A DNA stretch of 64,000 nucleotides. It comes from Candidatus Dormiibacterota bacterium. Lineage in GTDB: Bacteria; Chloroflexota; Dormibacteria; CF-121. A model generated the notes under the pieces. It had not been told where the DNA came from. It did no database searches and saw nothing but the letters and a program-made list of their open reading frames with translations. A program made the translations under genes and the position numbers. Of the stretch, positions 6,518-61,503 are shown in pieces. The first letter of the stretch is position 1, and each line of letters starts with the position of its first letter. The stretch covers positions 582 through 64,581 of the forward strand of contig DASWBA010000067.1 of NCBI GenBank assembly GCA_036390825.1, written 5' to 3'.

Positions 6518-6520
6518 GGC

Positions 6521-6551
6521 CCCCACCCTGCCCTCCCCCGGAGGGGGAGGG
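6521..6551 (+). repeat. REP-like palindromic element, copy A1
   Basis: ccccaccctgccctccccc-gga-gggggaggg. It sits in the divergent intergenic region between the epimerase and the flippase-like gene. Confidence 0.85.
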
Positions 6552-6561
6552 AACTGTCAGG

Positions 6562-6580
6562 CCTCGCCCGGAGGGGGAGG
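6562..6580 (+). repeat. REP-like hairpin, degenerate half copy A2
   Basis: cctcgccc-gga-gggggagg, 10 nt after A1. Confidence 0.6.
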
Positions 6581-6585
6581 AAATC

Positions 6586-7569
6586 GTGAGGCAGCGATGG
6601 CTGCGGGTGGCGGTGGCCGCGGTCGTGACGTTGGCGCTTCTCTTCCTGGTGCTGCGTGCCGTTCGGCCGGCGGAGCTGGTGGAAACGCTGTCCGAAGTCT
6701 CGCCGGGACTTGCGTTGCTGGGCGCGCTGTCGGCCTTCGCCTTCATCTCGGTGCGCGCCTGGCGATACCGGTTGCTCCTGGGCAATGGCCAGCCGCGGCG
6801 GCTCCGAACTATCCTCGGCGTGACGCTCAGTAGCTGGGGCGCCAGCCTCCTCCTCCCCGGACCCAGCGGCGATGCGGCCTTTGTGGTCCTGGCGCGGACG
6901 CGCCTCGGCGCCCCGGTCGCGGTCGGCGTCGGGGCTGCCCTGTTGAGCCGCCTGCTCGACGTCGCCAGCCTGTTGCTGATTGCACTGGTTATGGCGCCGC
7001 TGGCCGGCGTCGCCCTGCCCGGCCCGCTGTTGGGTGGCGGGGTCGGGCTGGCGGTGTTGATCGCCGCCGGGTTGACCGCCTTGTTCTGGCGCCGCTCGCG
7101 TCGCACGCTCGTCGGTTGGCTCGAGCGCCTCTCGCTGCCGCCCCGGATTCACGAGCGGTTGCATGTCGCCATCGAGGAGCTTGGCTCCGGAAGCCGTCCC
7201 CTGCTCCTGGTGGCGGCCACGCTGGCGGCGCGGGTCGCGACCGGGTTCCAGTACTTCTTCCTCTTCGCCGCCCTCGACCATCACCTCTCCCTGGTCCAGG
7301 TCTGGTTTGCGCTCAGCATCCGGACCCTGTTGCTGGCGGTACCGATCCAGGGCCTGGTCGGCCTGGGAACGATGCAACTCTGGTGGACGGCGGCGCTGAC
7401 GCTGTTGGGCTGGCCGGCCGATGAGGCACTCGCCGCCAGCGTGACGGTCCATCTTCTCGATCTCGGGATCTCGCTGCCGCAGGCCGCCGGAGGTTGGGTC
7501 TACCTGATCTGGCCGCGGTCCACGGCGACGGCCCCGGTACCCGCGGCCGTCGAATCTCAGCGGCGCTGA
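6586..7569 (+). CDS. Flippase-like / lysylphosphatidylglycerol-synthase TM-region family membrane protein (UPF0104)
   Basis: About eight TM helices. The N-terminus RVAVAAVVTLALLFLVLRAV...ISVRAWRYRLLL is typical of the family. Confidence 0.7.
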   Translation: MRQRWLRVAVAAVVTLALLFLVLRAVRPAELVETLSEVSPGLALLGALSAFAFISVRAWRYRLLLGNGQPRRLRTILGVTLSSWGASLLLPGPSGDAAFVVLARTRLGAPVAVGVGAALLSRLLDVASLLLIALVMAPLAGVALPGPLLGGGVGLAVLIAAGLTALFWRRSRRTLVGWLERLSLPPRIHERLHVAIEELGSGSRPLLLVAATLAARVATGFQYFFLFAALDHHLSLVQVWFALSIRTLLLAVPIQGLVGLGTMQLWWTAALTLLGWPADEALAASVTVHLLDLGISLPQAAGGWVYLIWPRSTATAPVPAAVESQRR

Positions 7570-10091: not shown

Positions 10092-12041
10092 TCAGCGGAC
10101 TGCCGATCCCGCGACCAGCCCAACCAGGAGCAGCACTCCGAACGCGCCGTGCAGGCGGGCGGTCATGAGGTCGATCATCGCGATCGCGCGCAGGTGGCCC
10201 TCGGCCCCGCGCTCGGCGTCCCGCAAGATCCAGGCGACGAGCGGCAGGCTGAAAAGGGTCAGCAAGGCGAGCGTGGGCAGTGCCCCCACCATCACCGCCA
10301 GGCCGACGGCGACGTAAGCGCCCAGGATGAGCATCACGTACACCCAGTGGGCGGCGTCCTGGCCGACCTGGGCGGAGAAGGTGGTGAAGCCGTGCCGCGT
10401 ATCCTCGGCGACGTCGCGCCACTCATTCCCGTGCAGGATGGCGGTGACGAGCAGGCCCACCGGCAAGGAGACCACCAGCAGGTTCGCGTCGAAGCTGCCG
10501 GTGACGGCGTAGTAGGAGCCGATCACCATCAGGGGCCCCATCAAGACGAAAACCAGTGGAAGCCCGAGTGCCCGGTACTTGTACTGAAAGGGCGGTGCGG
10601 TATAGAAGTAGCCGCCGATGAAACCGATCACCCCGAGCAGCACGATCGGCCAGCCCCGCTGGAGCAGGAGGAAGATGCCCATCAGCAGTGCCAGGATGAA
10701 GCCCGACCAGGCGACGACAAAGGCATCACGCTCGCTGATCCGGCCCTTGAGAATTGCCATCGACATCCGCGGCGACGTGATCGCATCGATCCCATGCCGG
10801 ACGTCGTAGATCTCGTTGGTCACGTTGGTCCCGATGTGGAGGCCGAGTGCGCCGAGCAGCGCTGCAAGGAAGAGCGCCCAATGCATGCGGCCCTGGCTGA
10901 GCGCGATGGCGCCGCCGACTGCAACCGGTAGCAGCGATGCGGTGAAGCTGAACGGCCGCACCACCTCCCAGGCGCCGGCGAGGCGGCGGCCCAAGCCCGG
11001 CCCGACCTGCGTACGTTCCCCTCCCCCGCGTGCGGGGGAGGGCAGGGTGGAGGCCGTTGCGGCGCGTGATGCATAGGCGACGGCCGCGTCGAAGACGGCG
11101 TTCACCTGGGCTTCTTCCTGCAAGATCGGCTGCAGCAGCGGCACGTCCATGCCGGCCTCGTGGTAGTCGGCGGCGCGGGCCGCGACCTGGTCGACGGTGC
11201 CGCACAGGATGAAGGCGTCGAGCAATTCATCCGGGATCAGCTCGCCGGCGCGGTGGTAGTCCTCGGCACGCCAGGCGGTCGCGATCTGGCTGCGCAGCCC
11301 CGGGTCGAATCCGGCGCGCTTCATCGAGATGTCGCTGAGGACCGACATCATGTAGATCACGAACGGCTCGCGCTTGGCCCGATTCAATGCTTCCTGCCGG
11401 CTGCTGTCGAAGAGGCAGAGGAGGTAACCACGGAAGTCGATGTCACCGGCGGACCGTCCATGCGAAGCGGCGCTCTCGAGCACCCGGGTGCGCATTTTCT
11501 GAAAGGCAGGTAGCGACTCGGCGGGACGCGCCAGGTAACCGTCGGCCTTTTCGCCGCAGAGGTCGAGGAAGGGGGTGCGGTAGGCGGCAATGTAGATCGG
11601 GATCCGGTGGGGCGGCTGGAACATCGGTTGGAGAGGAGGAACTTTGTCGTTGAGCTTCAGCGGTTGGCCCGTCCAGAGCCGGCGAATCTGGTCGATCGAT
11701 TCCGAGACACGAGCCACCGTGTCGTCGTAGGGGATCGCCATCTGGGAAAGGCGCAGGGGCAAGCCGCTCCCCAGCGCCAGTGTCACGCGGCGCGGCGCCA
11801 GGTCATCGAGGGCCGACATCGTCATCGCCACCACCACCGGATGGCGCGTGTAGGGGTTGAGGGCGCCGGCGCCGAGCCCGATGCGGCGGGTCTCCATCCC
11901 CATCGCCGTCAGGTAGGTGATCGGGTCTCGCTCGAAATAGCTGTCATGGACCCAGACCGAATCGAGGCCGAGGTCCTCGGCCCGTCGAGCCCACTCGGCG
12001 GTGTCGGTGACGCTACCCCGGGCGGCGAGTCCCAAACCCAC
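10092..12041 (-). CDS. menA: LLM-class (luciferase-like) flavin/F420-dependent oxidoreductase fused in frame to a UbiA-family prenyltransferase (MenA-like)
   Basis: N-terminal half: VGLGLAARGS...LGLDSVWVHDSYFERDPITYL...GSGLPL (LLM). C-terminal half: about eight TM helices with NEIYDVRHGID (the UbiA NxxxDxxxD motif). There is no stop between them. An internal TTG at 10994 could give a separate 300-aa MenA. GTG 12041 was chosen as the start. Confidence 0.7.
   Translation of the reverse strand: MGLGLAARGSVTDTAEWARRAEDLGLDSVWVHDSYFERDPITYLTAMGMETRRIGLGAGALNPYTRHPVVVAMTMSALDDLAPRRVTLALGSGLPLRLSQMAIPYDDTVARVSESIDQIRRLWTGQPLKLNDKVPPLQPMFQPPHRIPIYIAAYRTPFLDLCGEKADGYLARPAESLPAFQKMRTRVLESAASHGRSAGDIDFRGYLLCLFDSSRQEALNRAKREPFVIYMMSVLSDISMKRAGFDPGLRSQIATAWRAEDYHRAGELIPDELLDAFILCGTVDQVAARAADYHEAGMDVPLLQPILQEEAQVNAVFDAAVAYASRAATASTLPSPARGGGERTQVGPGLGRRLAGAWEVVRPFSFTASLLPVAVGGAIALSQGRMHWALFLAALLGALGLHIGTNVTNEIYDVRHGIDAITSPRMSMAILKGRISERDAFVVAWSGFILALLMGIFLLLQRGWPIVLLGVIGFIGGYFYTAPPFQYKYRALGLPLVFVLMGPLMVIGSYYAVTGSFDANLLVVSLPVGLLVTAILHGNEWRDVAEDTRHGFTTFSAQVGQDAAHWVYVMLILGAYVAVGLAVMVGALPTLALLTLFSLPLVAWILRDAERGAEGHLRAIAMIDLMTARLHGAFGVLLLVGLVAGSAVR
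11019..11050 (-). repeat. REP-like palindromic element, copy B (opposite orientation, inside an ORF)
   Basis: Plus strand: ccctccccc-gcgtgc-gggggaggg-cagggtgg. It encodes the linker STLPSPARGGGE of the fusion. Confidence 0.85.
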
Positions 12042-12119
12042 CCGGCGCGCGAGCTCTGCCACGTGATCAGCATAATCGTGAGCGTGGGGCAAGAAACGCG
12101 GGCCGATGGGATCCGGGCG

Positions 12120-24122: not shown

Positions 24123-24237
24123 ATCGTTGCGCCTCCGGCCTGTAGGCCTTGGCGTGACGAGCAGGTGACGGCCCAGCTGCACTCCGGCGTCAACCGCTGG
24201 CTTGGCAAAGCGATCAAAGTCCGGCTGGGTTGCGCCT

Positions 24238-25410
24238 ATGGTGGACACGAGCCCGCGTCGTTGGATGCGGGTGGGGCGGTCCGCGGCGCGGGATGCCCGG
24301 GCGGCCGGCGAGGAAGCGGCCGGCCTGGCCCTGGGTAAGGACATGGCGAGTCTCCTGGTGGTCTTCTCCTCTGACGCCTACGACCTCGAGCAATTGGTCC
24401 GAACCATAAGCGAACGGTCGGGCGGCGCGCCGCTCATCGGATGCTCCACGGCGGGTGAAATCGGTGCCTCCGGCCCCGAAGATGCCAGCGTGGTGGTGAC
24501 GGCGTTAGGCGGCGAGGGCTTTTCGATCGCCACGGCGCTGGCGACCGGCGCCTCCGGGCGACTCCGTTTGGCGAGTGCCGAGGTCGCGGCCTCGGTCTCC
24601 CGGGTGGCCGACCGCCCGCATAAGGTCTTGATGCTCCTGAGCGATGGCCTGTCCGGCGACCAGCAGGAAGTCGTGCGGGGCGCTTACTCCGTGGTTGGCG
24701 CCGCCGTCCCCCTGGTTGGGGGTTGTGCCGGCGACGATCTCAAGATGAAACGAACGTACCAGTTCCACGGCACCCAGGTAGTGACCGATGCGGTCGTGGG
24801 GGCCGCGATCGGCTCGGATTCCCCGATGGGCATTGGCGTGCGCCACGGCTGGCGGCGGGTCGGCGAACCGATGCTGGTCACCGGCAGTGCCGACAACCGG
24901 GTCTTTACCCTTGACGACAAGCCGGCGCTCGACATTTACCTGGACCGGCTCCAAGCGCCATCTGGCGCTCGAACGGACGCCGGGGCTTTCACCCGGTTTG
25001 CGATCACGCACCCCCTGGGCCTCAGCCGGCGTAGCGGTGAGGAGGTGCGCTTCGTTGGTGAAGCGAACTTCGAGGATCGGTCACTCGTCTGCATCGCCGG
25101 CGTCCCCCAAGGTGGCCTGGCCTGGTTCATGGAGGGTGATGACTCGTCGGTGCTCGAGGCCACCGACGCGGCGTGCTCGGATGCACTCGCCTCCCTCGCT
25201 GGGCAGCGCCCGGTCGGGTTCCTCGCCTTCGACTGCATCGCCCGGCGCGGCGTCCTCGGCGACCAGGGGATCCGCCGCGAGGTCGAGCGCATCAGCCTTC
25301 ACGCGGGCGGAGCACCGATCGCTGGCTTCTATACCTACGGTGAGATCGCGCGAACCAATGGCGTCAGTGGTTTTCACAATCAGACGTTGGTCATCCTCGC
25401 CCTGAGCTGA
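24238..25410 (+). CDS. FIST (N+C) domain sensory protein
   Basis: LLVVFSSDAYD...LIGCSTAGEI...GGCAGDD...GFYTYGEI, typical of FIST_N/FIST_C. Confidence 0.8.
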   Translation: MVDTSPRRWMRVGRSAARDARAAGEEAAGLALGKDMASLLVVFSSDAYDLEQLVRTISERSGGAPLIGCSTAGEIGASGPEDASVVVTALGGEGFSIATALATGASGRLRLASAEVAASVSRVADRPHKVLMLLSDGLSGDQQEVVRGAYSVVGAAVPLVGGCAGDDLKMKRTYQFHGTQVVTDAVVGAAIGSDSPMGIGVRHGWRRVGEPMLVTGSADNRVFTLDDKPALDIYLDRLQAPSGARTDAGAFTRFAITHPLGLSRRSGEEVRFVGEANFEDRSLVCIAGVPQGGLAWFMEGDDSSVLEATDAACSDALASLAGQRPVGFLAFDCIARRGVLGDQGIRREVERISLHAGGAPIAGFYTYGEIARTNGVSGFHNQTLVILALS

Positions 25411-25412
25411 AG

Positions 25413-27740
25413 GTGTCGACCTACTCCGGTGGTTGGTCGACTCAGCAGCTCGCCGAGTTCCTGACCGCCATCGCGTCCTACTCGGACCGGCCCGCCGCGC
25501 TCAAAGGGGCCGTCGAGCGGGTCGCCGAGGCGTTGGAAGCGGAGGTTGCGGCCGTCGTCCAGGGCAATGATGTTCTGGCCTCAGTCGGGTTTCCAGCCGA
25601 CGACGTCCCCACCGCGGTGCTCTGCGCGGCGACCGCGCAAGACGCTGCAACCATCGACCTGCCGTCCCTTGGGGTTTGCCGCATTTCGATCGTGGCACTG
25701 GAGACGCCGAAAGATGCGCGCCTTCTGGTCGCACGAACCGGAGATTCCGAATTCGTCCGCGAAGAGGTGGTTCTCTTGCGGGCCCTGGGGCGCGGCCTGG
25801 CGCTAACGATCCGCTCGCTCGCGGCGCTCGAGGAAGAGCGACACCTGCGTGTCCGGACCGAGGCGCAAAGCCGAGAGAACGTTCGGCTGGTGCGTCAATT
25901 GCAGGAACGTCAGACGCTGCTCGAACGGCTGGCCAAGATCGGCCAATCGATCTCGCACCGTGCTCCGTTCACCGAGGTGCTCGACGCGATCGTCCGTGGT
26001 GCCAGCGAGCTCGTCAATGCGGAGATCGCCAGCTTCCGCTTGCGCGACCCGGCCAAGCCGGACGCGTTGGTGATTCTCGCGCACGTCGGCCTCGCACCGG
26101 AGGTTCTGGCCGAGATGGCCCGGGAGCCTGCCTATCGGGGTGCCAGCAGTCGTGCTGTGGCGGACGACGAGCTGGTGGTCATACCGGATTACCCACGGTT
26201 CGAGGGAGGGGTCGTCGCCCTGGTTCGCGATGGCGTCCAGGTCGCGATGGCCGCGCCTGTACGGGAAACGGGGCGGATCGTCGGGAGTCTCACGGTGGCC
26301 TCGCGCGAGGCCGGGCGCGTGTTCACGCCGGCGGAACAGGACACCCTGGTCGCCTTTGCCGAACACGCCAGCCTCGCGCTCACGGACTCCAAGATGGCGG
26401 CCGCCATGCAACACCAGGTCCTTCACGATGCGCTCACCGACCTGCCCAACCGCACCCTCTTTCTTGATCGCCTCGAACACGCGCTCGCCGGTGCGCGGCG
26501 GGAGGTGGGGTCGATCACGGCGGTCTTCTTCATCGATCTCGATCGCTTCAAGAATGTCAACGACAGCCTGGGGCATGAGGCAGGCGACCAGTTGTTGATT
26601 CAGTTGGGGCGCCGTCTGCGTGGCTCGATTCGCGAGGTGGACACGCCGGCCAGGCTTGGCGGCGACGAGTTTGCCGTCCTCGTGGAAGGGGTGGCGGACC
26701 TCAACGAGGTGATCATCGTCGCCCAGCGAATCCGCGACAACTTGCGCCAGCCGGTGACGATCGGCGGCAACGAGGTCTTCAGCAACCCCAGCATTGGTGT
26801 GGCCACCAGCAGCGATGGGCGAGAGGCCGCGTCCGAGCTGCTCCGCAATGCGGACACGGCCATGTATCGCGCCAAGGAGACGGGCACCAGGCCCTGTGTC
26901 GTCTTCGAGCCGACGATGCATGCGGCGGTGATGCGCCGCCTCGAACTGGATGCCGACCTGGCGCGCGCGGTGGAGCGCAACGAATTCGAGCTGCATTATC
27001 AGCCGGTGGTTCGACTCGATGGGGAGGCGATCGATGGTGCCGAGGCGCTGGTCCGCTGGCGCCATCCGGTTAAAGGGCTCATCCCTCCGGCAGAATTCAT
27101 CGGAGTCGCCGAGGAAAACGGACAGATCGTGCCGCTGGGCCGCTGGGTCTTGCAGGAGGCGATCCGCCAGGCGGTCGAGTGGGAGGCGACCCTGCCGGAT
27201 CGCGGGCCCTTCAGCCTGAGTGTCAACGTGTCCGCGCGGCAGCTGCAGGATCCCGACCTGGTTGGGCAGCTCACGCGCATGCTGTTCGAAGCCGCGTTCA
27301 ACCCGGCTCACCTGGTGCTCGAAATCACAGAGTCCGTGCTGATGCAGGACAAGGGGGGAATGGTGGCAAGGCTGCGGGAGCTGAAGCAGCTGGGTCTACG
27401 ACTGGCCATCGACGACTTTGGGACGGGGTATTCCTCACTCGGATACCTGCGGCATTTTCCGGTCGACGTCCTCAAGATCGACAAGGCGTTCGTCGATGAC
27501 ATCGTCGGAGGGACTGAGCAGTCGGCCGTGGCTCGAGCCATCATCGGCCTCAGCGATGCCCTGCACCTGACCACTGTCGCGGAAGGCATCGAAACGGCGG
27601 GCCAACTTGGCCTACTCCGGTCGCTGGGTTGCGAGCTGGGACAGGGATACTATTTCTCGCCGCCGCTGCCAGCGATGGCCTTCGAAGCAATGTTGCGGCA
27701 TGGCCTTGGCTGGAAACCGGGCGTTTCAGCCGCTGCCTGA
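25413..27740 (+). CDS. GAF-GGDEF-EAL c-di-GMP turnover protein
   Basis: GGDEF (ARLGGDEFAVLV) with RxxD I-site REVD. EAL (GAEALVRWRHP), EITES, DDFGTGYSSL. Start is 2 nt after the FIST stop. Confidence 0.9.
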   Translation: MSTYSGGWSTQQLAEFLTAIASYSDRPAALKGAVERVAEALEAEVAAVVQGNDVLASVGFPADDVPTAVLCAATAQDAATIDLPSLGVCRISIVALETPKDARLLVARTGDSEFVREEVVLLRALGRGLALTIRSLAALEEERHLRVRTEAQSRENVRLVRQLQERQTLLERLAKIGQSISHRAPFTEVLDAIVRGASELVNAEIASFRLRDPAKPDALVILAHVGLAPEVLAEMAREPAYRGASSRAVADDELVVIPDYPRFEGGVVALVRDGVQVAMAAPVRETGRIVGSLTVASREAGRVFTPAEQDTLVAFAEHASLALTDSKMAAAMQHQVLHDALTDLPNRTLFLDRLEHALAGARREVGSITAVFFIDLDRFKNVNDSLGHEAGDQLLIQLGRRLRGSIREVDTPARLGGDEFAVLVEGVADLNEVIIVAQRIRDNLRQPVTIGGNEVFSNPSIGVATSSDGREAASELLRNADTAMYRAKETGTRPCVVFEPTMHAAVMRRLELDADLARAVERNEFELHYQPVVRLDGEAIDGAEALVRWRHPVKGLIPPAEFIGVAEENGQIVPLGRWVLQEAIRQAVEWEATLPDRGPFSLSVNVSARQLQDPDLVGQLTRMLFEAAFNPAHLVLEITESVLMQDKGGMVARLRELKQLGLRLAIDDFGTGYSSLGYLRHFPVDVLKIDKAFVDDIVGGTEQSAVARAIIGLSDALHLTTVAEGIETAGQLGLLRSLGCELGQGYYFSPPLPAMAFEAMLRHGLGWKPGVSAAA

Positions 27741-27819
27741 ACGCAAATTGTTCAACGTGCGCCAGCCTAACCACACAGCCCCCTGACGTTTTTGGATGGC
27801 GAGGTCTGGCTAGACTCTG

Positions 27820-30938: not shown

Positions 30939-30941
30939 CAG

Positions 30942-30972
30942 CCCCACCCTGCCCTCTCCGGGAGGGGGAGGG
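30942..30972 (+). repeat. REP-like palindromic element, copy C
   Basis: ccccaccctgccctctccg-gga-gggggaggg, 3 nt after the chlI-like stop. Confidence 0.8.
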
Positions 30973-31001
30973 ATCTGGAAGCACACTGCGTTGATCTCGC
31001 C

Positions 31002-32219
31002 GTGAGGCGGTTGGTGTGTGTGCTGAGTCTCGTCCTCGTTACCGCCTGTTCGGCCGCGCCCACCGGCGTGCGGACGAGTCCGACTCCGACCGCAAGCGTG
31101 ACTGCGCCGGGATCCCCCTATCCGTCGCGCGTCCTCTTCGCCGTTCTCGAGACCAAACGAGCAGGTGCGCAGGAGTCGGAGTATGCCGGCAGCCACGACA
31201 CGATCGCGATCGCGGGCAGCGATGGCTTCGCCGTTGCTCGGGCGACCTTCGTTCCGCGGCACATTCCCGTGATCCCGATGGCGGGTGCGGTTCTGTACCC
31301 CGAGGCGTACCCGGCAGCCGGCGGCGTCTACTTTATCGACGGTGCCGGGGTCGTTCGCCGGCTCGATCCATCGGGATCAACGCGCAAGGTCACCACATTT
31401 CCCATCACCTCCCCGCAACAGGGTGTTAGCTTCGCGGTCAGCCCAGATGGCAAACAGCTGATCGCTGCAGTGCTCACCTATCCGAGCGTGGCGCCAGCGC
31501 CGTCACCGTCGGCGGGCGAGGCGCCGGGCCCGCCCTTCATCACGACGGGATCGTGGATGCTCGATCTGGAGGTTGCCACTGACGGCGGTTCCGCCGCGGT
31601 AGTGCACCACTGGCAGAGCGGCGCCAACGATTATCCCGGGAGCAGCAGCGGCTTTCGGAACCTCGCGATCGTCGGTTGGGACGCAACCGGTCCGATTGGC
31701 ATGATTGACGGCTATAACGGGGTGCAGCAGACCCTCTTCGAAGGCCAGCGCTGGGCCGGTGGCCACCTCATCCGGTTGGGGCTCGACGGCACCCTTGGCG
31801 CACCCACCCTGTCGGCTGACTGCACGCCGGTAGCCCTCGGCGATGGGGGTCGCGTCGCTTGCCTTTTGCCCGGAGCCGGCGCCCACACCGACCTGCTCCA
31901 GGTAGCCCGCCTGGATGGCACGGTTCTCTGGACAGCCATCCAACCCACGCAGCACATTCAGACAGCGCAATACGGCGGCTTCACGCTCTCCCCCGACGGG
32001 ACCCTGGTCGCGATGGATGGCGTGCTGGTCCCGCAACACGGCGTTGATGTCCCCCTGCCGGAGAGCTTCATGACCCGGGGATGGCTCAGCCGCGACACCT
32101 TGATCGGCCTTACCCAGGGGACCGAGCCAATGAAGATCGGGATTCTCCGCCTCAATGCGGCCACATCGATCGAGAACTGGGGGTTCAGTGGCCAATTCGT
32201 GGGGGTGCTTCGGCCCTAG
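31002..32219 (+). CDS. Hypothetical lipoprotein, probable beta-propeller (TolB/WD40-like repeats)
   Basis: Signal peptide with lipobox LVLVTAC|S. Repeated ...SPDGKQLIAAV / ...SPDGTLVAMDG motifs. Confidence 0.65.
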   Translation: MRRLVCVLSLVLVTACSAAPTGVRTSPTPTASVTAPGSPYPSRVLFAVLETKRAGAQESEYAGSHDTIAIAGSDGFAVARATFVPRHIPVIPMAGAVLYPEAYPAAGGVYFIDGAGVVRRLDPSGSTRKVTTFPITSPQQGVSFAVSPDGKQLIAAVLTYPSVAPAPSPSAGEAPGPPFITTGSWMLDLEVATDGGSAAVVHHWQSGANDYPGSSSGFRNLAIVGWDATGPIGMIDGYNGVQQTLFEGQRWAGGHLIRLGLDGTLGAPTLSADCTPVALGDGGRVACLLPGAGAHTDLLQVARLDGTVLWTAIQPTQHIQTAQYGGFTLSPDGTLVAMDGVLVPQHGVDVPLPESFMTRGWLSRDTLIGLTQGTEPMKIGILRLNAATSIENWGFSGQFVGVLRP

Positions 32220-32243
32220 CCGACTGACCGATAAACTCGGTCG

Positions 32244-40684: not shown

Positions 40685-40686
40685 CG

Positions 40687-40717
40687 CCCCAGCCTACCCT
40701 CCCCCAGAGGGGGAGGG
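40687..40717 (+). repeat. REP-like palindromic element, copy D
   Basis: ccccagcctaccctccccc-aga-gggggaggg, 2 nt after the protease stop. Confidence 0.85.
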
Positions 40718-40792
40718 AGAAACCGTGGGCTGGATATTCTGCTGGCCCTGGATCGTCATCTCGACGGAAATCAGGAACGGCGCCCGGCTAGG

Positions 40793-42693: not shown

Positions 42694-42695
42694 GG

Positions 42696-42725
42696 CCCGC
42701 ACCCTGCCCTCCTCGCAAAGAGGGG
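42696..42725 (+). repeat. REP-like element, degenerate copy E1
   Basis: cccgcaccctgccctcctcgcaaagagggg, directly after the pdxH stop. Confidence 0.6.
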
Positions 42726-42734
42726 AAATAAAAA

Positions 42735-42755
42735 CCCTCCCCGAGGTGGGGAGGG
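42735..42755 (+). repeat. REP-like hairpin, copy E2
   Basis: ccctcccc-gaggt-ggggaggg, between convergent genes. It could act as a bidirectional terminator. Confidence 0.7.
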
Positions 42756-42779
42756 AAAGTAGGGGCTTGAGAGATGAGT

Positions 42780-56216: not shown

Positions 56217-56366
56217 TCAGCGCAGTAGCAATTGCGTCACGGCGACCGTCATCGCGCCCAGCGCCAGCGCGACCAGCGCCAGGGCCAGCAGCGGCTGCCG
56301 GACCCGGTTCGGCCGCCGAGGCGGGGCGAAATCGACGCCGACCTGGGCGTATTCAGGCCGCGACAC
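56217..56366 (-). CDS. Unannotated 49-aa single-TM protein in the PilN position (mini-PilN candidate)
   Basis: GTG 56366 is preceded by GGAGG and overlaps the pilM 3' end by 14 nt. Product: MSRPEYAQVGVDFAPPRRPNRVRQPLLALALVALALGAMTVAVTQLLLR. It is below the ORF-track length cutoff. Confidence 0.5.
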   Translation of the reverse strand: MSRPEYAQVGVDFAPPRRPNRVRQPLLALALVALALGAMTVAVTQLLLR

Positions 56367-57264
56367 GGCTGTCACCTCCCTGTGTTGGGGTAAGGCGGTC
56401 GTACCAGCGCGCCTGCATCAGCAGGCCCAGCCCGGCAAGGTGCGCCTGCCAGGGAAAGCCCGGGGCCGAGGTGAAGCGCGTGGTCGGGACGGTGATCGTG
56501 AAATCGAAACGTTGCTCGGCCCGCTGGATGCCGTCGGGAAGGAACGCGAACCGCCCACCGAGCGCCAGTGTCGTTGTCGGGCTGATCGCGACATCGGACG
56601 CGGTGCCCCGCATGAATTTCACCAGCGCGTTCAGGGCGTGGGTCAACTCCTCGAGCTGCGCCTCGGGATCGTCGGATGAGGCGTCGAGGACGAACGTCCG
56701 GAAAAACCGAGGGCGGCCTTTGACCATCAGTACCAGCGTCGCCTCGGCGGCCGCCCACTCGAGGAGCAACCCATCCGAGACCCCCATGCCACGGGCCAGG
56801 GCCAGCGGCTTGAGGTCAATGCGCTCGACCTGGAGGCCGGCCGAGCTGACCGCCGCCACGATGGCGTCGATCATGTCGCGCCGAGCGGCTACGAGGTAGA
56901 CGGCGTAGCCGGTCTTGTCGCGGATCGCGTGCCACGCGAAATGGACGTCGGCCGCCTCCATCGGAACCTGGCGGCGACCTTCGAACTCCACCGCACGACG
57001 GAGCTCGCCGGCGGGCAACCGTGGTAACCGAAAATCCCGAAAGGCGGTGCCGGTCTCCGCGATGGCGAGGCGGGCCCGGGTCGCGGTGAAACCCCCGGCC
57101 TCGAGCGCGCTACGGAATGCCGTGGTCAGCAGCGGCGTCGGCATCCCGTCCACCAGCGCGCCGTCAGGGAGCAGGATCTCGGAATGTCGTGTCAGCTTCC
57201 GACCGCTGACCTCCAGGATCTTGAGCTCATGGGCCCCCAGGTCGAGGGCGAGGCGCGCGGTCAT
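56353..57264 (-). CDS. pilM: Type IV pilus assembly protein PilM (actin-like ATPase fold)
   Basis: LALDLGAHELKILEV...LRRAVEFEGRRQVPM...VYLVAARRDMIDAIV. ATG 57264 has a GGAGG RBS and an ATGA overlap with the upstream gene. Confidence 0.85.
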   Translation of the reverse strand: MTARLALDLGAHELKILEVSGRKLTRHSEILLPDGALVDGMPTPLLTTAFRSALEAGGFTATRARLAIAETGTAFRDFRLPRLPAGELRRAVEFEGRRQVPMEAADVHFAWHAIRDKTGYAVYLVAARRDMIDAIVAAVSSAGLQVERIDLKPLALARGMGVSDGLLLEWAAAEATLVLMVKGRPRFFRTFVLDASSDDPEAQLEELTHALNALVKFMRGTASDVAISPTTTLALGGRFAFLPDGIQRAEQRFDFTITVPTTRFTSAPGFPWQAHLAGLGLLMQARWYDRLTPTQGGDSRVAA

Positions 57265-57734
57265 TGATACGCCTCCCAGTTGATCGTCCACGACGCCTTC
57301 TTACCCGCGTTGGATGAGGCGATCTGGGCATTCAGCTGGCGGTTGGTCCCTGTGGCCGCCACGTTGATGTTGTAGGTCGGCTTCCCTGGCTTGCACCCCG
57401 GCGCGGCTGTGATGGTGACGCTGACCGTCATCGTGCCCGAGCTATAAGCGAGCGGGAAGTTTCCAGCGTTGTTGATGCAACCGGCGCCCTTGGCGGCCGA
57501 GTCGTTGATCTCGATCGCGTAGGCCAGACCGGAATCGAGGGCATAGGTAGTCCGCGTATCGGCGCGGACGCTCCCCTGGCCGAGGAATGCTCCGCTCGCC
57601 AGCGTGAGCGCCGCCCACACGACCAGTAGGAGAGCGGCGACGAACCCAAGCACGACGAGCAAGGCCTGGCCACGCTGGCGCGCGAGGCCCCCACCCTGCC
57701 CTCCCCCAGAGGGGGAGGGCCGATGGAGGCGCAT
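57261..57734 (-). CDS. PilX-N-like pilus assembly protein (membrane anchored, no prepilin cleavage motif)
   Basis: ARQRGQALLVVLGFVAALLLVVWAAL resembles the PilX_N/TadG-type anchor. The only available start (ATG 57734, TGATG overlap) puts a REP element into codons 5-16. Confidence 0.6.
   Translation of the reverse strand: MRLHRPSPSGGGQGGGLARQRGQALLVVLGFVAALLLVVWAALTLASGAFLGQGSVRADTRTTYALDSGLAYAIEINDSAAKGAGCINNAGNFPLAYSSGTMTVSVTITAAPGCKPGKPTYNINVAATGTNRQLNAQIASSNAGKKASWTINWEAYQ
57689..57719 (+). repeat. REP-like palindromic element, copy F (inside the 5' end of the PilX-like ORF)
   Basis: ccccaccctgccctccccc-aga-gggggaggg. Translated on the minus strand as PSPSGGGQGGG. Confidence 0.85.
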
Positions 57735-58201
57735 CAGAAGCAGCCTCCGGGTCGATTGCTCACGTTGAGGGTCGAGGCGGTTGACCCAACCGCTGACGGC
57801 TGGATGGTGACCGTCGCATAGCAACCGGCGACGGCGATGGTCACGCTGGTGATGCCGCGGGCGGCGACCTGGGCGGTTCCGTTGACGGTCCGGATCAAGT
57901 TGCGGTTGGCGTCGATGCTGTAGACGACCGTAATCACGGGCGATCCATGGGTCAGGGTCAGCGGCGTGGCCGAATTGATGGTCCCCGCCGTAACCGCGAC
58001 CGCGCTGCTCAGGTCCCGGACGAGCGACAGGCTGGCATCGCTGGTGGCGTTGTCGGCGGCGATGACGCGCGCCTCATTGCTGATCGCCCGAATGCCGACC
58101 AGGAAGGTACTGGCCATCACCAGGGTGACGATGCTCAGTATCGTGATCCCGATCAACGCCTCGACGATGGTGTATCCCCGCTGTCCGGTGGTCCGCGTCA
58201 T
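57734..58201 (-). CDS. Minor (pseudo)pilin with prepilin-type N-terminal domain
   Basis: MTRTTGQRG|YTIVEALIGITILSIV (Gly at -1, Glu at +5). Confidence 0.8.
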   Translation of the reverse strand: MTRTTGQRGYTIVEALIGITILSIVTLVMASTFLVGIRAISNEARVIAADNATSDASLSLVRDLSSAVAVTAGTINSATPLTLTHGSPVITVVYSIDANRNLIRTVNGTAQVAARGITSVTIAVAGCYATVTIQPSAVGSTASTLNVSNRPGGCF

Positions 58202-58575
58202 GGCTCCGCCTTCAGGAAGATCAGCGTTTCCCGTGCTCCATTCGGGCCATTGACGGTCAGAACCAGCTGTTGCAATCCAAGGTCCGGGTTGCCGGCAGCA
58301 AACCCCAGGACCGGGTCCCAGTAGGAGACCTGATAGGAGAAGGCAAAGCCGCCCGCCACCAGGTTGGTGTAGACGGCCGGACTTGGCGAGTAGGCCTGGC
58401 TCTTGATGTATTCCGCATCCGAGCGGGTCAGCAGATCGAGCGTGGTCTGCTGCCTGTGTCGCGCGGCGGCGATCGTGATGGCGGAGAAGGCGCTCAGGAT
58501 GCTGACGACGATGATCGCCAGCAGGGCGATGGCGACCATCGTCTCGATCAGGCTGACCCCGCGCTTTCGCGTCAT
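58198..58575 (-). CDS. Minor (pseudo)pilin with prepilin-type N-terminal domain
   Basis: MTRKRG|VSLIETMVAIALLAIIV (Gly at -1, Glu at +5). Confidence 0.8.
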   Translation of the reverse strand: MTRKRGVSLIETMVAIALLAIIVVSILSAFSAITIAAARHRQQTTLDLLTRSDAEYIKSQAYSPSPAVYTNLVAGGFAFSYQVSYWDPVLGFAAGNPDLGLQQLVLTVNGPNGARETLIFLKAEP

Positions 58576-59801
58576 TTCAGCGCCCCGACCAGGCCGTACA
58601 TGGCGGAGATGAGCGACACCGCGATGAATCCGACAACGATGCCGACGGCAACCGTCATCACCGGCTCGATCAAGGAGGTCATGGCGCGGATCCTGTAGTC
58701 GAGCTCCTCTTCGTAGAAATCCGCGGCCTGCTCGAGGTAGGTGTCGAGCGTTCCGGTCTCCTCGCCGACCCGCACCATCTGGGTCAGCATCGGCGGAAAC
58801 AGGTGGGTGCGGAGGAGTGGGCCGGCAAACCCCTCGCCGCCGGTCATCTGCTCTTTGACCGTCGCCAGCCCGCGTTGAAAAACCTTGTTGCCGGTGCCGG
58901 CGATCACAGCGTCGAAGGTCTGCCCAAGAGGGACGCCGGCTTTCAGGACCATGGCGAGCGTGCGGGAAAAGCGATTGAGCACCGCCGAGAGGACGATCGG
59001 TCCTATGACCGGGAGCTTTAGCGAGATCTGGTCTTTGGCATACTGGCCGCGCAGCGTCCGCAGCGCGATCACGATGGCGCCGACGATCGATGCGATGACA
59101 GCGCCCATCAGGAGGCCCCAGGCTCGGGTGAAGGCGACGATCCCGATCAGAATTCGGGTCGATAGCGGCAGCTTTACGCGAAATTCGGCGAAGATCTTGA
59201 CGAAGGCCGGGAGGGCGAAGAAGACGAGGATGATGACCACGGCCGTGGCGACGACGAGGATGACGGCCGGATAGATCATGGCGGTCCGGACACGACGCAC
59301 CGTGTTCAGGTCACGCCGCAAATAGCCGGCGAGCTCTTTGAGCGTCGCTTCGAGGTTACCGGTGAGCTCGGCGACCCGGATCAGGTCGACGTACAGGCTG
59401 GGGAAGACTTTCGGGTGTTTGACCAGCGAATCGGAGAGATTCTGTCCTCGCTCCAGGTCGTCGAGGACCGTGAGGATGACCCGCTTGAACAGCGGCGACG
59501 CCGTCTCTTCCGCGATGACCGTCAGCGCCCGGGTCATCGGGACGCCGGCGCCGACAAAGGTCGCGAGCTGACGGGTGAAGAGGATGAGGTCTTGTCCCGA
59601 GATCTGGTAGAGGGATGGAAAGTAGTCCGCCATCGTCTTTTTCGGCGGCGCAGGGTTGAGCTGGACGATCTTGAGACCCTCGAGCCAGAGCGCCTGCTCG
59701 GCGTCTGAGGTACCGGCGGCCTCGATCCGACCTTCGCGTTTCTGCCCACGTTCGTTGTAGGCCTTGTAGGCGAAGCTAGGCACTGTTCCCCTCGCTGACA
59801 T
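58572..59801 (-). CDS. pilC: Type IV pilus platform protein PilC (GspF family)
   Basis: Two T2SSF repeats, three TM segments, and a typical C-terminus ...VGFIAVSLISAMYGL. Confidence 0.9.
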   Translation of the reverse strand: MSARGTVPSFAYKAYNERGQKREGRIEAAGTSDAEQALWLEGLKIVQLNPAPPKKTMADYFPSLYQISGQDLILFTRQLATFVGAGVPMTRALTVIAEETASPLFKRVILTVLDDLERGQNLSDSLVKHPKVFPSLYVDLIRVAELTGNLEATLKELAGYLRRDLNTVRRVRTAMIYPAVILVVATAVVIILVFFALPAFVKIFAEFRVKLPLSTRILIGIVAFTRAWGLLMGAVIASIVGAIVIALRTLRGQYAKDQISLKLPVIGPIVLSAVLNRFSRTLAMVLKAGVPLGQTFDAVIAGTGNKVFQRGLATVKEQMTGGEGFAGPLLRTHLFPPMLTQMVRVGEETGTLDTYLEQAADFYEEELDYRIRAMTSLIEPVMTVAVGIVVGFIAVSLISAMYGLVGALK

Positions 59802-61503
59802 GCACCGATCGGATGATTTCGGCGATGGTGGTCACGCCTTCGTCGATCCGGGCCACACCCGCCGAACGAAGCGTCGTCATGCCTTCGCGGATCGCCTGTT
59901 CGCGGAGTTCCTCGTGGGGAGCTTCGCGGACCAGGAGCCGCTTGATCCCGTCGGTCATGGGCAACACCTCGAAGACGCCGATGCGGCCGCGGAACCCGGT
60001 GTGGACGCAGTTGGCACATCCGGAACCGCGATGAAAGATGAGGCCCTTGCCACCAACCGCCCGGTAGAACTCGAGCTCTTCCGCCGACGGCTCGTAGACC
60101 GAGGTACAGTCCGGGCAGTTGCGGCGGACGAGCCGCTGGGCGAGCACGCCAATCACGGCCGACGTGACCATGAACGACTCGATGCCCATCTCGAGGAAGC
60201 GGTAGATGGCACCGACGGCGTCGGTCGCATGCAACGACGAGAGCACCAGGTGCCCGGTGAGCGCGGATTGCACCGAGATCTCGGCGGTCTCCTTGTCGCG
60301 GATCTCGCCGACCAGGATGGCGTCGGGATCCTGGCGCAGGATGCCGCGCAGTCCGTTGGCAAAGGTAATACCTGCCAGGCGGTTGATCTGGATCTGGTTG
60401 ACGTCCTCGAAGGTGTATTCGACCGGGTCTTCGATCGTCATCACGTTCTTCTCGACGCGGTTGATCTCGTTCAAGGCGGCATAGAGCGTTGTCGTCTTGC
60501 CGCTTCCGGTGGGGCCGGTGACGAGGATCATCCCGTAGGGCGACTGGACCAGCCCGCGGAACAGCTTGAGCGTGACCGGCGAAAAACCCAGGGTGTCAAG
60601 TCGAAGGATGGAGCGCGACCGCTCCAACAGACGAAGCACGGCCTTCTCGCCCCAGATGGTTTCGATGGTGCCCACGCGGATGTCCAGGGGTCGTCCGTCG
60701 ACCGTCGTCTGGATCTGTCCATCCTGGCTGTGCCGCCGATCGACGATGTCGAGGTTGGCCAGCAGTTTGACCCTGGAGATGATGGGCGCCGCCAGGGTAG
60801 CCGGGAGCCTGGTGGCGTCGTGCAGCACACCGTCGATCCGGAAGCGGATCCGCAGGTGGTCCTGTTGCGGCTCGATGTGAATGTCCGAAGCGCGTTCTTC
60901 GGCGCCCTGGGCGATGATCAGGTCGACGATTTGGACGACCGGAGCGTCCTGCTTAACCTCTGCCAACCGGCGGTTCGCCAGCGTGGGCCGGTAGGTCTCC
61001 TCGAAAGAGCGCACGTGCCGATCGACACCGGTGCGCAGCTTGTAGGCCTGGGTGATCGCGAGGTCGATCTGCGACTTGACCCCGAGCACCGGCTTGATCC
61101 GCTTGCGCGTCAGTACCTTGAGTTCGGCGAACAGGGCCAGGTCGCCGGGGTCGACGGTGGCGACTTCGAGCTCATCCTTGTCGAGCCGGATCGGCAGGAT
61201 TGTGTGCTCGCGCGCGTACGACTCGGAGATCAGCGCCAGCGCTTCCTTTTCGACCCGGGCACGGGCGAAGTCGATCTGGGGCACGCCGAAGTGCAGGCTC
61301 AGGACTCGAGCGAGCGCCTTCTCATCGACCAGGCCCTGGGCGAGCAGCACCTGACCGAGCGGTCGTCGCTCCCGCCGCTGGACGGACAGTGCGGTCTCCA
61401 GCTGTTCAGGGGTCAGCAACCCGTTTTCGAGGAGCAACTCGCCCAGCCGCTTCTCCGGGCGCATGCCGAGGCGTCCGCCGGGCTGCCGCTCGACCGCGCT
61501 CAC
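59776..61503 (-). CDS. pilB: Type IV pilus extension ATPase PilB (GspE family) with an N-terminal MshEN-type domain
   Basis: Walker A GPTGSGKTT, Asp box TIEDPVEY, Walker B PDAILVGEIRD, His box SLHATDA, and a tetracysteine CPDC...CANC. GTG 61503 forms a GTGA overlap with the HTH gene. An alternative ATG lies at 61464. Confidence 0.92.
   Translation of the reverse strand: MSAVERQPGGRLGMRPEKRLGELLLENGLLTPEQLETALSVQRRERRPLGQVLLAQGLVDEKALARVLSLHFGVPQIDFARARVEKEALALISESYAREHTILPIRLDKDELEVATVDPGDLALFAELKVLTRKRIKPVLGVKSQIDLAITQAYKLRTGVDRHVRSFEETYRPTLANRRLAEVKQDAPVVQIVDLIIAQGAEERASDIHIEPQQDHLRIRFRIDGVLHDATRLPATLAAPIISRVKLLANLDIVDRRHSQDGQIQTTVDGRPLDIRVGTIETIWGEKAVLRLLERSRSILRLDTLGFSPVTLKLFRGLVQSPYGMILVTGPTGSGKTTTLYAALNEINRVEKNVMTIEDPVEYTFEDVNQIQINRLAGITFANGLRGILRQDPDAILVGEIRDKETAEISVQSALTGHLVLSSLHATDAVGAIYRFLEMGIESFMVTSAVIGVLAQRLVRRNCPDCTSVYEPSAEELEFYRAVGGKGLIFHRGSGCANCVHTGFRGRIGVFEVLPMTDGIKRLLVREAPHEELREQAIREGMTTLRSAGVARIDEGVTTIAEIIRSVHVSEGNSA

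Follow-up and report, generated by a model that had tools for sequence, protein, structure and literature searches.

A genus-wide family of GC-rich, BoxC/TMECO-like hairpin repeats in Dormibacterota and its probable link to DUF559 nuclease cassettes

A 64,000-nucleotide stretch of contig DASWBA010000067.1 (positions 582 to 64,581; hereafter the window), from a metagenome-assembled genome (MAG) of a Candidatus Dormiibacterota bacterium, carries a short GC-rich palindromic repeat at six loci, labelled A to F (Table 1). These loci belong to a real family of GC-rich hairpins, dispersed and genus-wide, that share a conserved 5' tail and are enriched far beyond chance. The element is mobile, having been gained and lost between species, and the same element forms the inverted ends of small gene cassettes encoding a DUF559 nuclease. 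The repeat at the six loci is probably selfish, short, and non-autonomous, a member of the BoxC/TMECO class that is likely tied to the DUF559 cassette.

Abundance of the repeat in the genome and the genus

The source MAG, in which the window forms part of contig C67 (G000; 3.23 Mb in 206 contigs, 65.5% G+C, 81.5% complete), was compared with MAGs of the same genus that are 66 to 95% complete and fragmented, among them the genomes referred to below as G001, G002, G005, G007, G009, G011, G012, G019, G021, and G024. An nhmmer profile was built from 70 seed copies and run on G000, where it recovered 88 copies at an E value of ≤1e-3 and 110 copies at ≤0.1. The 19-mer CCCCACCCTGCCCTCCCCC, searched with at most one mismatch, had 55 matches in G000 and was present in all of the 24 same-genus genomes searched, with 10 to 107 matches in each, whereas 16 genomes of other families of the class had 0 to 2 matches. 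Copies per genome in the genus number about 10 to 120. A reversed control pattern of the 19-mer gave no match in any genome searched, and the idea, entertained in an earlier note on this DNA, that the motif might not be enriched genome-wide clearly fails against these counts. Within the window, the stem pattern CCCTCCCCC-N3-GGGGGAGGG, with up to two mismatches allowed, had five matches, compared with none in 100 dinucleotide-preserving shuffles. A scan of the window at the Rfam gathering thresholds returned no match, there being no Rfam family for the element, and a literature search with the exact element sequence found nothing.

Architecture of the repeat unit

The unit is 33 nt long when it has a 3-nt loop and 36 nt long when it has a 6-nt loop, and it consists of three 9-nt G/C blocks (C5AC3-TG-C3TC5-loop-G5AG3). 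Parsed copies read CCCCCACCC, followed by loop 2 (TG, TA, or TGA), CCCTCCCCC, loop 1 (AGA, GGA, or GCRAGC, the last of which lengthens the stem), and GGGGGAGGG. On the G-rich strand the order is CCCTCCCCC-N3/6-GGGGGAGGG-CA-GGGTGGGGG. Blocks 1 and 2 of this strand pair as a hairpin of 9 to 10 bp, and the third block, GGGTGGGGG, mirrors the G arm GGGGGAGGG, T standing opposite A, so that a single strand can fold as a hairpin plus a third strand (a purine-motif intrastrand triplex). The earlier note had described a stem preceded by a conserved 5' tail. Both are real, although the true unit reaches 2 nt (GC) further in the 5' direction than described there, and the tail is the third, mirror-image block of a triplex motif of the BoxC/PIT/TMECO type.

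Per-position identity is about equal across the three blocks at 0.88 to 0.99, values that are somewhat inflated because the parsing pattern allowed up to two substitutions per block, and both loops vary in sequence and in length. At least eight of the nine valid third-strand contacts are kept in 70 of the 93 parsed copies. The energy of the hairpin as DNA, calculated with ViennaRNA for the hairpin only, ranges from -10.8 kcal/mol with the 3-nt loop to -13.2 kcal/mol in the long-loop form. The 5' flank of the hairpin is GCCCCCACCCTG and contains no GTAG tag. All six frames of the consensus unit are free of stop codons, and both of its lengths are multiples of three.

DUF559 cassettes with inverted repeat ends

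In G007, G011, and G019 (loci L151, L152, and L153), a small gene of the DUF559 family (PF04480), a Vsr-like PD-(D/E)XK nuclease family, is bracketed by exact members of the repeat family (32 to 36 bits) with their tails pointing inward. One or two antisense copies lie about 40 nt upstream of the gene and a sense copy lies at its 3' end, where the DUF559 open reading frame (ORF) runs into the copy (…GPHPALPRERGRE…). G024 and a second locus in G007 show the same bracketing on the one side that can be observed. The two small DUF559 genes of G000 itself (C6:650-961 and C152:21740-22048) have variant brackets, in which CCTCCCCAC…GTGGGGAGG is followed by a mini-hairpin and then by GGAGGGG, and three divergent or long DUF559 proteins had no bracketing elements. 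Sampling of 16 small DUF559 genes from other genera of the class showed inverted variant three-block elements bracketing nearly all of them.

The cassette lineages differ in block sequence yet keep the mirror relation between the G arm and the third block. The arm GGGGGAGGG of the family described here is matched by GGGTGGGGG, and in the other lineages the corresponding pairs are GGGGAGAGGG and GGGGAGAGGGG, GGGGGGAGG and GGAGGGGGG, GTGGGGAGG and GGAGGGG, and GGGGAGGG and GGGGTGGGG. A G-quadruplex is possible in 61 of 105 copies of the present variant and was considered as the conserved feature, but it was rejected, since other cassette lineages keep the mirror relation without four G-tracts and several of the cassette-end variants cannot form a G-quadruplex. 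Comparison of the blocks thus points to the mirror (triplex) relation, and not the G-quadruplex, as the feature that is conserved.

Outside the phylum, ycjD of Escherichia coli K-12, a DUF559 gene, has a full TMECO/BoxC unit 170 nt downstream. The ycjD gene (L177, NC_000913.3 1351040-1351840) also ends in a degenerate CCCTCTCCC…GAGGGGG hairpin, which is followed by a 23-nt duplicate of the gene's own 3' coding end. No paper linking DUF559 to these repeats was found in the literature searched. A role for DUF559 as the mobilizer of the repeat is plausible but unproven.

Gain, loss, and placement of copies

Comparison of orthologous loci, which the earlier note had proposed as a check, revealed sites that are filled in some species and empty in others. 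These include A, C, D, E, and F as well as window positions 1293, ~3770, and ~35540, the last three being empty in the window and filled in G002, where the copy at 1293 abuts a TAG stop and that at ~3770 lies inside a DUF2079 membrane-protein gene. Site A is empty in G002, with about 4 nt between the divergent genes compared with about 66 nt in the window. At site D, G002 has two tandem copies and G005 has none, and at site E G005 has an unrelated GC hairpin of its own instead. The site of F is longer by 33 nt in G000 and G009 and is without the insert in G002, G021, G011, and G007. Two sites could be compared cleanly in empty and filled form between the window and G002, position 1293 and copy F, and neither shows a target duplication.

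Copies often lie directly behind stop codons, in agreement with the positional trend described earlier. Where a gene reads toward the tail and its stop precedes the unit, the spacing is 0 to 2 nt in 9 of 17 cases, and the spacing to stops on the other side of the unit is 6 to 27 nt. A fixed target trinucleotide was considered and rejected, because only 14 of 101 copies have T-N-A in front of the tail; closeness to stops therefore does not reflect a strict target site. Among the G000 copies, no preference for either orientation relative to the neighboring gene was found.

Copies are, in contrast, oriented coherently with respect to one another. Six of seven units in the window lie on the plus strand, B being the exception, as had been seen earlier, and this shared orientation extends to coherence along contigs: neighboring copies have the same versus the opposite orientation in 40 versus 11 cases in G000 (p=6e-5), 57 versus 15 in G002 (p=6.5e-7), and 21 versus 10 in G005. 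On G002 contig C119 the orientation switches from minus to plus between about 150 and 200 kb. In the surroundings of dnaA (G002:C120, G005:C29, and G000:C84), copies are on the plus strand to the left and on the minus strand to the right, and the orientation thus appears to flip near this gene. If the origin adjoins dnaA, the G-rich structure-forming strand would be on the lagging-strand template. GC skew was flat in G000, whether taken by copy or by contig, and over 380 kb of G002 including the dnaA region (C119 and C120), which means that skew-based origin finding fails in this lineage, and gene-strand bias as a guide to replication direction gave only a nonsignificant trend.

Copies inside genes

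Genes in G000 were called with a self-trained codon-usage caller (3076 genes, 89.6% of the genome), and the coding status of copies was assessed by flank-by-flank frame scoring. Coding potential was found in the same open frame on both flanks for 23 of about 103 copies, and another 16 to 20 lie at the extreme end of a gene whose frame runs through them, with the stop directly after the tail in seven of these (…GGGGGC-TGA). Judging from the open frames, about a third of the copies would be translated, contrary to the extragenic placement implied by the label of repetitive extragenic palindrome (REP) that the earlier note had given to the element. Many of the PSPSGGGQGGG-type peptides that had been attributed to spurious ORFs are inserts in genuine proteins. 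The hosts of coding copies include ArgG, ArgH, PyrR, Ddl, CysS, GcvT, AroE, PobA, an S9 peptidase, GH31, sarcosine oxidase, and FdhE. Among antisense coding copies, 14 of 18 share one phase, which encodes PSPSGGGQGGG (p=1.4e-4), and 11 of 17 sense coding copies share the phase encoding APTLPSPRGGG (p=0.008), while frames containing Trp or Cys are rare or absent. With a length of 33 or 36 nt and no stop in six frames, a coding copy merely adds a Pro/Ser/Gly-rich loop, and only the mildest frames survive.

Filled and empty states are also found in ArgG. The empty form has 397 amino acids (…LD-GRxLxxVxLV…), and the filled form, found in eleven species, gains PSPSGGGQGGG (junction peptide …LTGESFPSPSGGGQGGSADLV…); one species has three tandem copies, and one insert retains native residues. 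On a tree calculated with the insert masked, the filled state requires at least three changes (gains or losses) on well-supported branches. Relative to solved ArgG structures the insert is an 8-residue insertion. In an AlphaFold model with a mean predicted local distance difference test score (pLDDT) of 88.4, the sole segment below 50 (residues 238-242) falls within the insert, which is modeled as a loop between a strand (226-232) and a helix (245-259). The three tandem copies, in L004 (VBIS01000072.1), have a 36-nt period, and the internal copies have shortened tails; this arrangement suggests that the tandem copies arose by local slippage after insertion.

Several copies are also clustered on G000 contig C146 (1355-6300), where a formate dehydrogenase operon contains four copies in 5 kb. 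An FdhE-like gene contains two of these, and the C-terminal tail (…SPSPSGGGQGGG*) of an FdnH-like subunit is supplied by another. The FdnG-like gene of the operon has an in-frame TGA at ~2087-2100, which may encode selenocysteine. A transposase was sought on this four-copy contig and none is there.

Comparison with known repeat families

BoxC/PIT repeats of E. coli and other Proteobacteria have reportedly been treated also by Bachellier and by Hoyne and Maher in 2000. The element described here shares with the BoxC/PIT/TMECO repeats a 9-nt C-rich arm, a loop of 3 to 6 nt, a 9-nt G-rich arm, a short loop 2, and a 9-nt mirror G-rich block. In both, stems are more conserved than loops, tens to about 100 copies are present per genome, copy numbers vary between close relatives and loci differ, and no transposase or target-site duplication is known. 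The E. coli repeats have the form CCCTCNCCC-N3-6-GGGNGAGGG-N3-GGGNGAGGG, and triplex folding has been shown in vitro (Holder et al. 2015, PMC4666352). TMECO has been reported to be always intergenic and without strand bias in E. coli (Holder et al. 2015, PMC4666352), whereas here about a third of the copies are predicted to be translated and orientation is coherent along contigs. The blocks also differ (C5AC3/C3TC5/G5AG3 here, CCCTCNCCC/GGGNGAGGG in TMECO), and loop 2 here is mostly 2 nt long. Near-identical three-block units are present on Variovorax, Enterobacter, Rhizobium, and Thermus replicons, the Enterobacter copy being 89.5% identical over 38 nt and the Variovorax copy 97% over 34 nt. 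An exact search for the 19-mer also found it, with longer loops after it, on 22 viral contigs of 41 to 72% G+C. By its block design, the element can be classed as a lineage-specific member of a cross-phylum BoxC/TMECO class.

Among the viral sequences, the IMG/VR contigs 3300048800_000081 and 3300037222_000065 (L131, L140, and L144; ~57% G+C) have five to six same-strand copies of a longer repeat that holds the 20-mer CCCCCACCCTGCCCTCCCCC, and this core also occurs, with long insertions in the loop, on other viral contigs.

The placement of copies in genes recalls the Rickettsia palindromic elements (Ogata et al. 2000, 2002), which are likewise palindromic selfish repeats found in frame in unrelated housekeeping genes, where they encode a recurrent peptide tolerated at surface loops. 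The Rickettsia elements, however, are about 100 to 150 bp long, have unrelated sequences, and occur in an obligate intracellular alphaproteobacterium, whereas the element described here is 33 to 36 nt long, has a three-block mirror design, occurs in free-living soil bacteria, and is also common just outside genes. REP elements, the bacterial interspersed mosaic elements (BIMEs) built from them, and REP doublets forming hairpins (REPINs) with their REP-associated tyrosine transposases (RAYTs) are similar in being short GC-rich hairpins with a conserved flank, many copies near stops, and no target duplication, and the RAYT gene is bracketed by inverted copies in a manner that resembles the DUF559 cassettes. 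In contrast to REPIN-RAYT systems, there is here no RAYT and no GTAG tag, copies are singlets and are not extragenic, and the candidate partner is a PD-(D/E)XK (Vsr-like) nuclease and not an HUH transposase. Transposable elements of the miniature inverted-repeat type (MITEs) such as Correia, ERIC, and Nezha likewise derive from the ends of an element that carries a gene, are non-autonomous, and at times become fused in frame to host ORFs, but they possess terminal inverted repeats, duplicate the target site through the action of DDE transposases, and are usually longer than 80 bp, whereas the unit here is a single 33-nt end without a duplication.

Origin of the repeats

Having spread within one Dormibacterota genus, the repeat is retained where it is least harmful: just behind or before stops, between convergent genes, and inside coding sequence. 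The copies would be solo ends of a small DUF559 nuclease cassette with inverted ends and tails pointing inward or would be acted on in trans by such a cassette. The nuclease probably recognizes the folded single strand exposed at the replication fork, a mode of recognition that would explain the coherent orientation, the apparent flip near dnaA, and the absence of target-site duplications. We infer that the nuclease mobilizes or maintains the solo copies by acting on folded single-stranded DNA at the fork. A more general proposal, which we hold tentatively and with somewhat less than even confidence, is that repeats of the BoxC/PIT/TMECO type are the cis-acting ends and solo derivatives of a minimal cassette whose sole gene is DUF559 and whose product would recognize the folded strand on one fork template, the stop-free 33/36-nt design allowing the repeat to colonize coding sequence.

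Several observations weigh against this account. Only 5 of the 30 genus genomes yielded small DUF559 cassettes, 23 of the 30 have no DUF559 at all, and G012, with 107 element matches, showed no DUF559 cassette. The two G000 cassettes carry the other end variant, of which there are only about two further copies in that genome, so that the ~110 copies of the family are left without a cognate cassette in the 81.5%-complete assembly. Association is also no proof of mobilization, and the cassette may instead be carried along as a passenger or be targeted preferentially by the repeat. With regard to folding, z-scores of -1 to -3 indicate that the hairpin is not exceptional for its composition, and no stable triplex was found in vivo for TMECO (Holder et al. 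2015, PMC4666352). The TMECO pattern in its strict published form is not matched anywhere in the window, and a relaxed pattern (loop 2 of 2 to 3 nt, third block GGGNGNGGG) has two matches, A1 and F, compared with none in shuffles. Translation of the inserts is deduced from open frames, frame bias, and conserved start codons, and the direction of replication, with GC skew flat, from the position of dnaA.

The absence of DUF559 from 23 of the 30 genomes would be accommodated by a selfish three-block repeat that spread without this nuclease, through another enzyme or through replication- or repair-linked copying and gene conversion triggered by non-B structure, with the cassettes as mere neighbors or carriers of the same ends. 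Copy number does not track the presence of DUF559, such motifs have been tied to local genomic instability without an enzyme (Holder et al., PMC4666352), and ArgG and the linker of a luciferase-like monooxygenase (LLM)-UbiA fusion protein (see below) were each struck more than once at one site, as might happen through recombination between alleles. The inverted bracketing, in which the ends covary by cassette lineage across many genera, is nevertheless hard to obtain by chance at about one element per 30 kb, and missing cassettes are expected where MAG assemblies break at repeats. Spread without DUF559 is thus considered rather unlikely. Still less probable, at roughly the level of a long shot, is that the copies are host-beneficial signals kept by selection, such as factor-independent terminators, stabilizers of mRNA 3' ends, or translational attenuators near stops. 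Many copies do lie 0 to 5 nt after a stop or 6 to 27 nt from a stop on the other strand, the hairpins are stable (-10.8 to -13.2 kcal/mol), and D and E are located between convergent genes, with G005 having its own GC hairpin at E. No U/T run follows the hairpin on either strand, however, copies take either orientation about equally often with respect to the upstream gene, some are found in divergent promoter regions and in coding sequence, and sites are gained and lost between close species. PIT elements lacked promoter or terminator activity in E. coli (Holder et al., PMC4666352), and a terminator role leaves the conserved third block unexplained. Co-option as terminator-like hairpins may have taken place at some intergenic copies, D and E in particular, but this cannot explain the whole family.

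Mobilization as classical REPs or REPINs by a RAYT, an IS200/IS605-type Y1 HUH transposase, would fit the size of the unit, its GC-rich hairpin with a conserved 5' flank, the proximity of copies to stop codons, and the lack of target duplication, and the coherent orientation is compatible with single-strand transposition. The earlier note had called the element REP-like and suggested a search for a RAYT gene, and in the strict sense this designation does not hold: PF01797 (Y1_Tnp) was unmatched in G000 and in all 30 genus genomes, 7 of which are at least 90% complete, while control genomes responded. With no GTAG tag, copies that are mostly single instead of inverted doublets, and about a third of copies inside coding frames, a RAYT origin is very improbable. 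That note had also reported no transposase in the window, and none was present among the 20 of its ~63 genes checked by Pfam. Finally, the G+C content of 65.5% and the linker-like character of the encoded peptides might suggest chance G/C-rich palindromes or a selected Pro/Gly protein linker mimicking a DNA repeat. Matches were absent from shuffles and reversed-pattern controls, the same DNA is found in intergenic regions, in both orientations, and in several frames, and conservation at the DNA level includes synonymous positions, which together leave this explanation with a negligible probability.

Copies in the window

Every copy listed in the earlier note was found in the window at its given place, and several details of its description were borne out. 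The places given there are 6521-6551 with a degenerate hairpin at 6562-6580 for A, 11019-11050 (inverted) for B, 30942-30972 for C, 40687-40717 for D, 42696-42725 with 42735-42755 for E, and 57689-57719 for F. A1 and F differ by one base of the loop (GGA in A1, AGA in F); C starts 3 nt after a TAG, D 2 nt after a TAG, and E 2 nt after a TAA; A lies between the divergent starts of an epimerase gene (ATG 6517, minus strand) and an LPG_synthase_TM gene (GTG 6586, plus strand); and B and F are in open frames of real genes.

Table 1. Repeat copies in the window and the genes that host copies B and F.
Feature	Position	Strand	Description
A1	6519..6554	+	Full unit: GC-CCCCACCCTG (third block plus TG loop), CCCTCCCCC, GGA, GGGGGAGGG, AAC
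A2	6562..6584	+	Degenerate tail-less hairpin GCCTCGCCC-GGA-GGGGGAGG-AAAT; missing in G002 along with A1
B	11016..11054	-	Long-loop type …CCCTCCCCC-GCACGC-GGGGGAGGG…; read as TASTLPSPARGGGE
Host gene of B	10092..12083	-	LLM-oxidoreductase/UbiA fusion, 663 aa
C	30940..30975	+	Two stem mismatches; 3 nt past TAG of AAA/Mg-chelatase-like gene
D	40685..40720	+	Directly after TAG of CvpA/trypsin-like protease gene; between convergent genes
E1	42694..42728	+	Degenerate full unit after TAA of pdxH
E2	42735..42758	+	Tail-less hairpin CCCTCCCC-GAGGT-GGGGAGGG between convergent genes
F	57687..57719	+	Exact 33-nt insertion
Host gene of F	57261..57734	-	157 aa; MRLHR-[insert]-LARQRGQALLVVLGF…

The hairpin of A1 has an energy of -10.8 kcal/mol as DNA. 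The G arm of A2, GGAGGGGGAGGAAAT (GGAGG-like), ends 6 nt before the GTG at 6586 and could serve as the Shine-Dalgarno sequence of the LPG_synthase_TM gene.

The host protein of B contains Bac_luciferase (residues 19-313) and UbiA (384-619) domains, with the insert at about residues 342-356 in the interdomain linker. The Bac_luciferase-UbiA fusion is encoded by one uninterrupted frame in 27 of the 30 genus genomes. Depending on the species, its linker contains the element in the sense frame (APTLPSPARGGGE, once doubled), in an antisense frame (PPPLxGEGRVG), or in no recognizable form. The linker of this fusion of a luciferase-like (F420/flavin-type) monooxygenase with a UbiA prenyltransferase is thus a repeated landing site of the element.

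Copy F, read on the minus strand, supplies codons 6-16 (PSPSGGGQGGG) of a PilX-like small membrane protein, the ATG of which overlaps the upstream TGA and is conserved in most of five aligned genus orthologues. This gene is part of a type IV pilus/type II secretion system (T2SS)-like cluster on the minus strand (56353-61503) that contains genes for a PilM-like protein, the PilX-like host of F, two N_methyl pseudopilins, and PilC (T2SSF), as well as an upstream gene of 575 aa.

Two segments of the window are missing from the syntenic contigs of G001 and G002. The first, of 1.3 kb (30976-32243), adjoins copy C and contains one 402-aa ORF (31011-32219) with no Pfam match. The second, of 3.7 kb (24123-27805), contains FIST-domain and GAF-GGDEF-EAL genes and has no element at its borders.

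Implications

The repeats create spurious ORFs and variable loops that confuse the annotation and alignment of Dormibacterota MAGs, and they probably also break assemblies. Protein-coding palindromes, earlier described as a peculiarity of Rickettsia, are common in this uncultured phylum of free-living soil bacteria, where the inserts affect core enzymes such as ArgG, ArgH, PyrR, Ddl, CysRS, and GcvT. To our knowledge, neither the origin nor the function of BoxC/TMECO repeats has been explained in about 30 years. DUF559 proteins, including E. coli YcjD, together with an apparently replication-linked orientation, provide a testable candidate for this puzzle. If the proposed link between nuclease and repeat is true, it would represent a second partnership of the REPIN-RAYT kind, one that employs a different enzyme fold and a triple-helical DNA signal.

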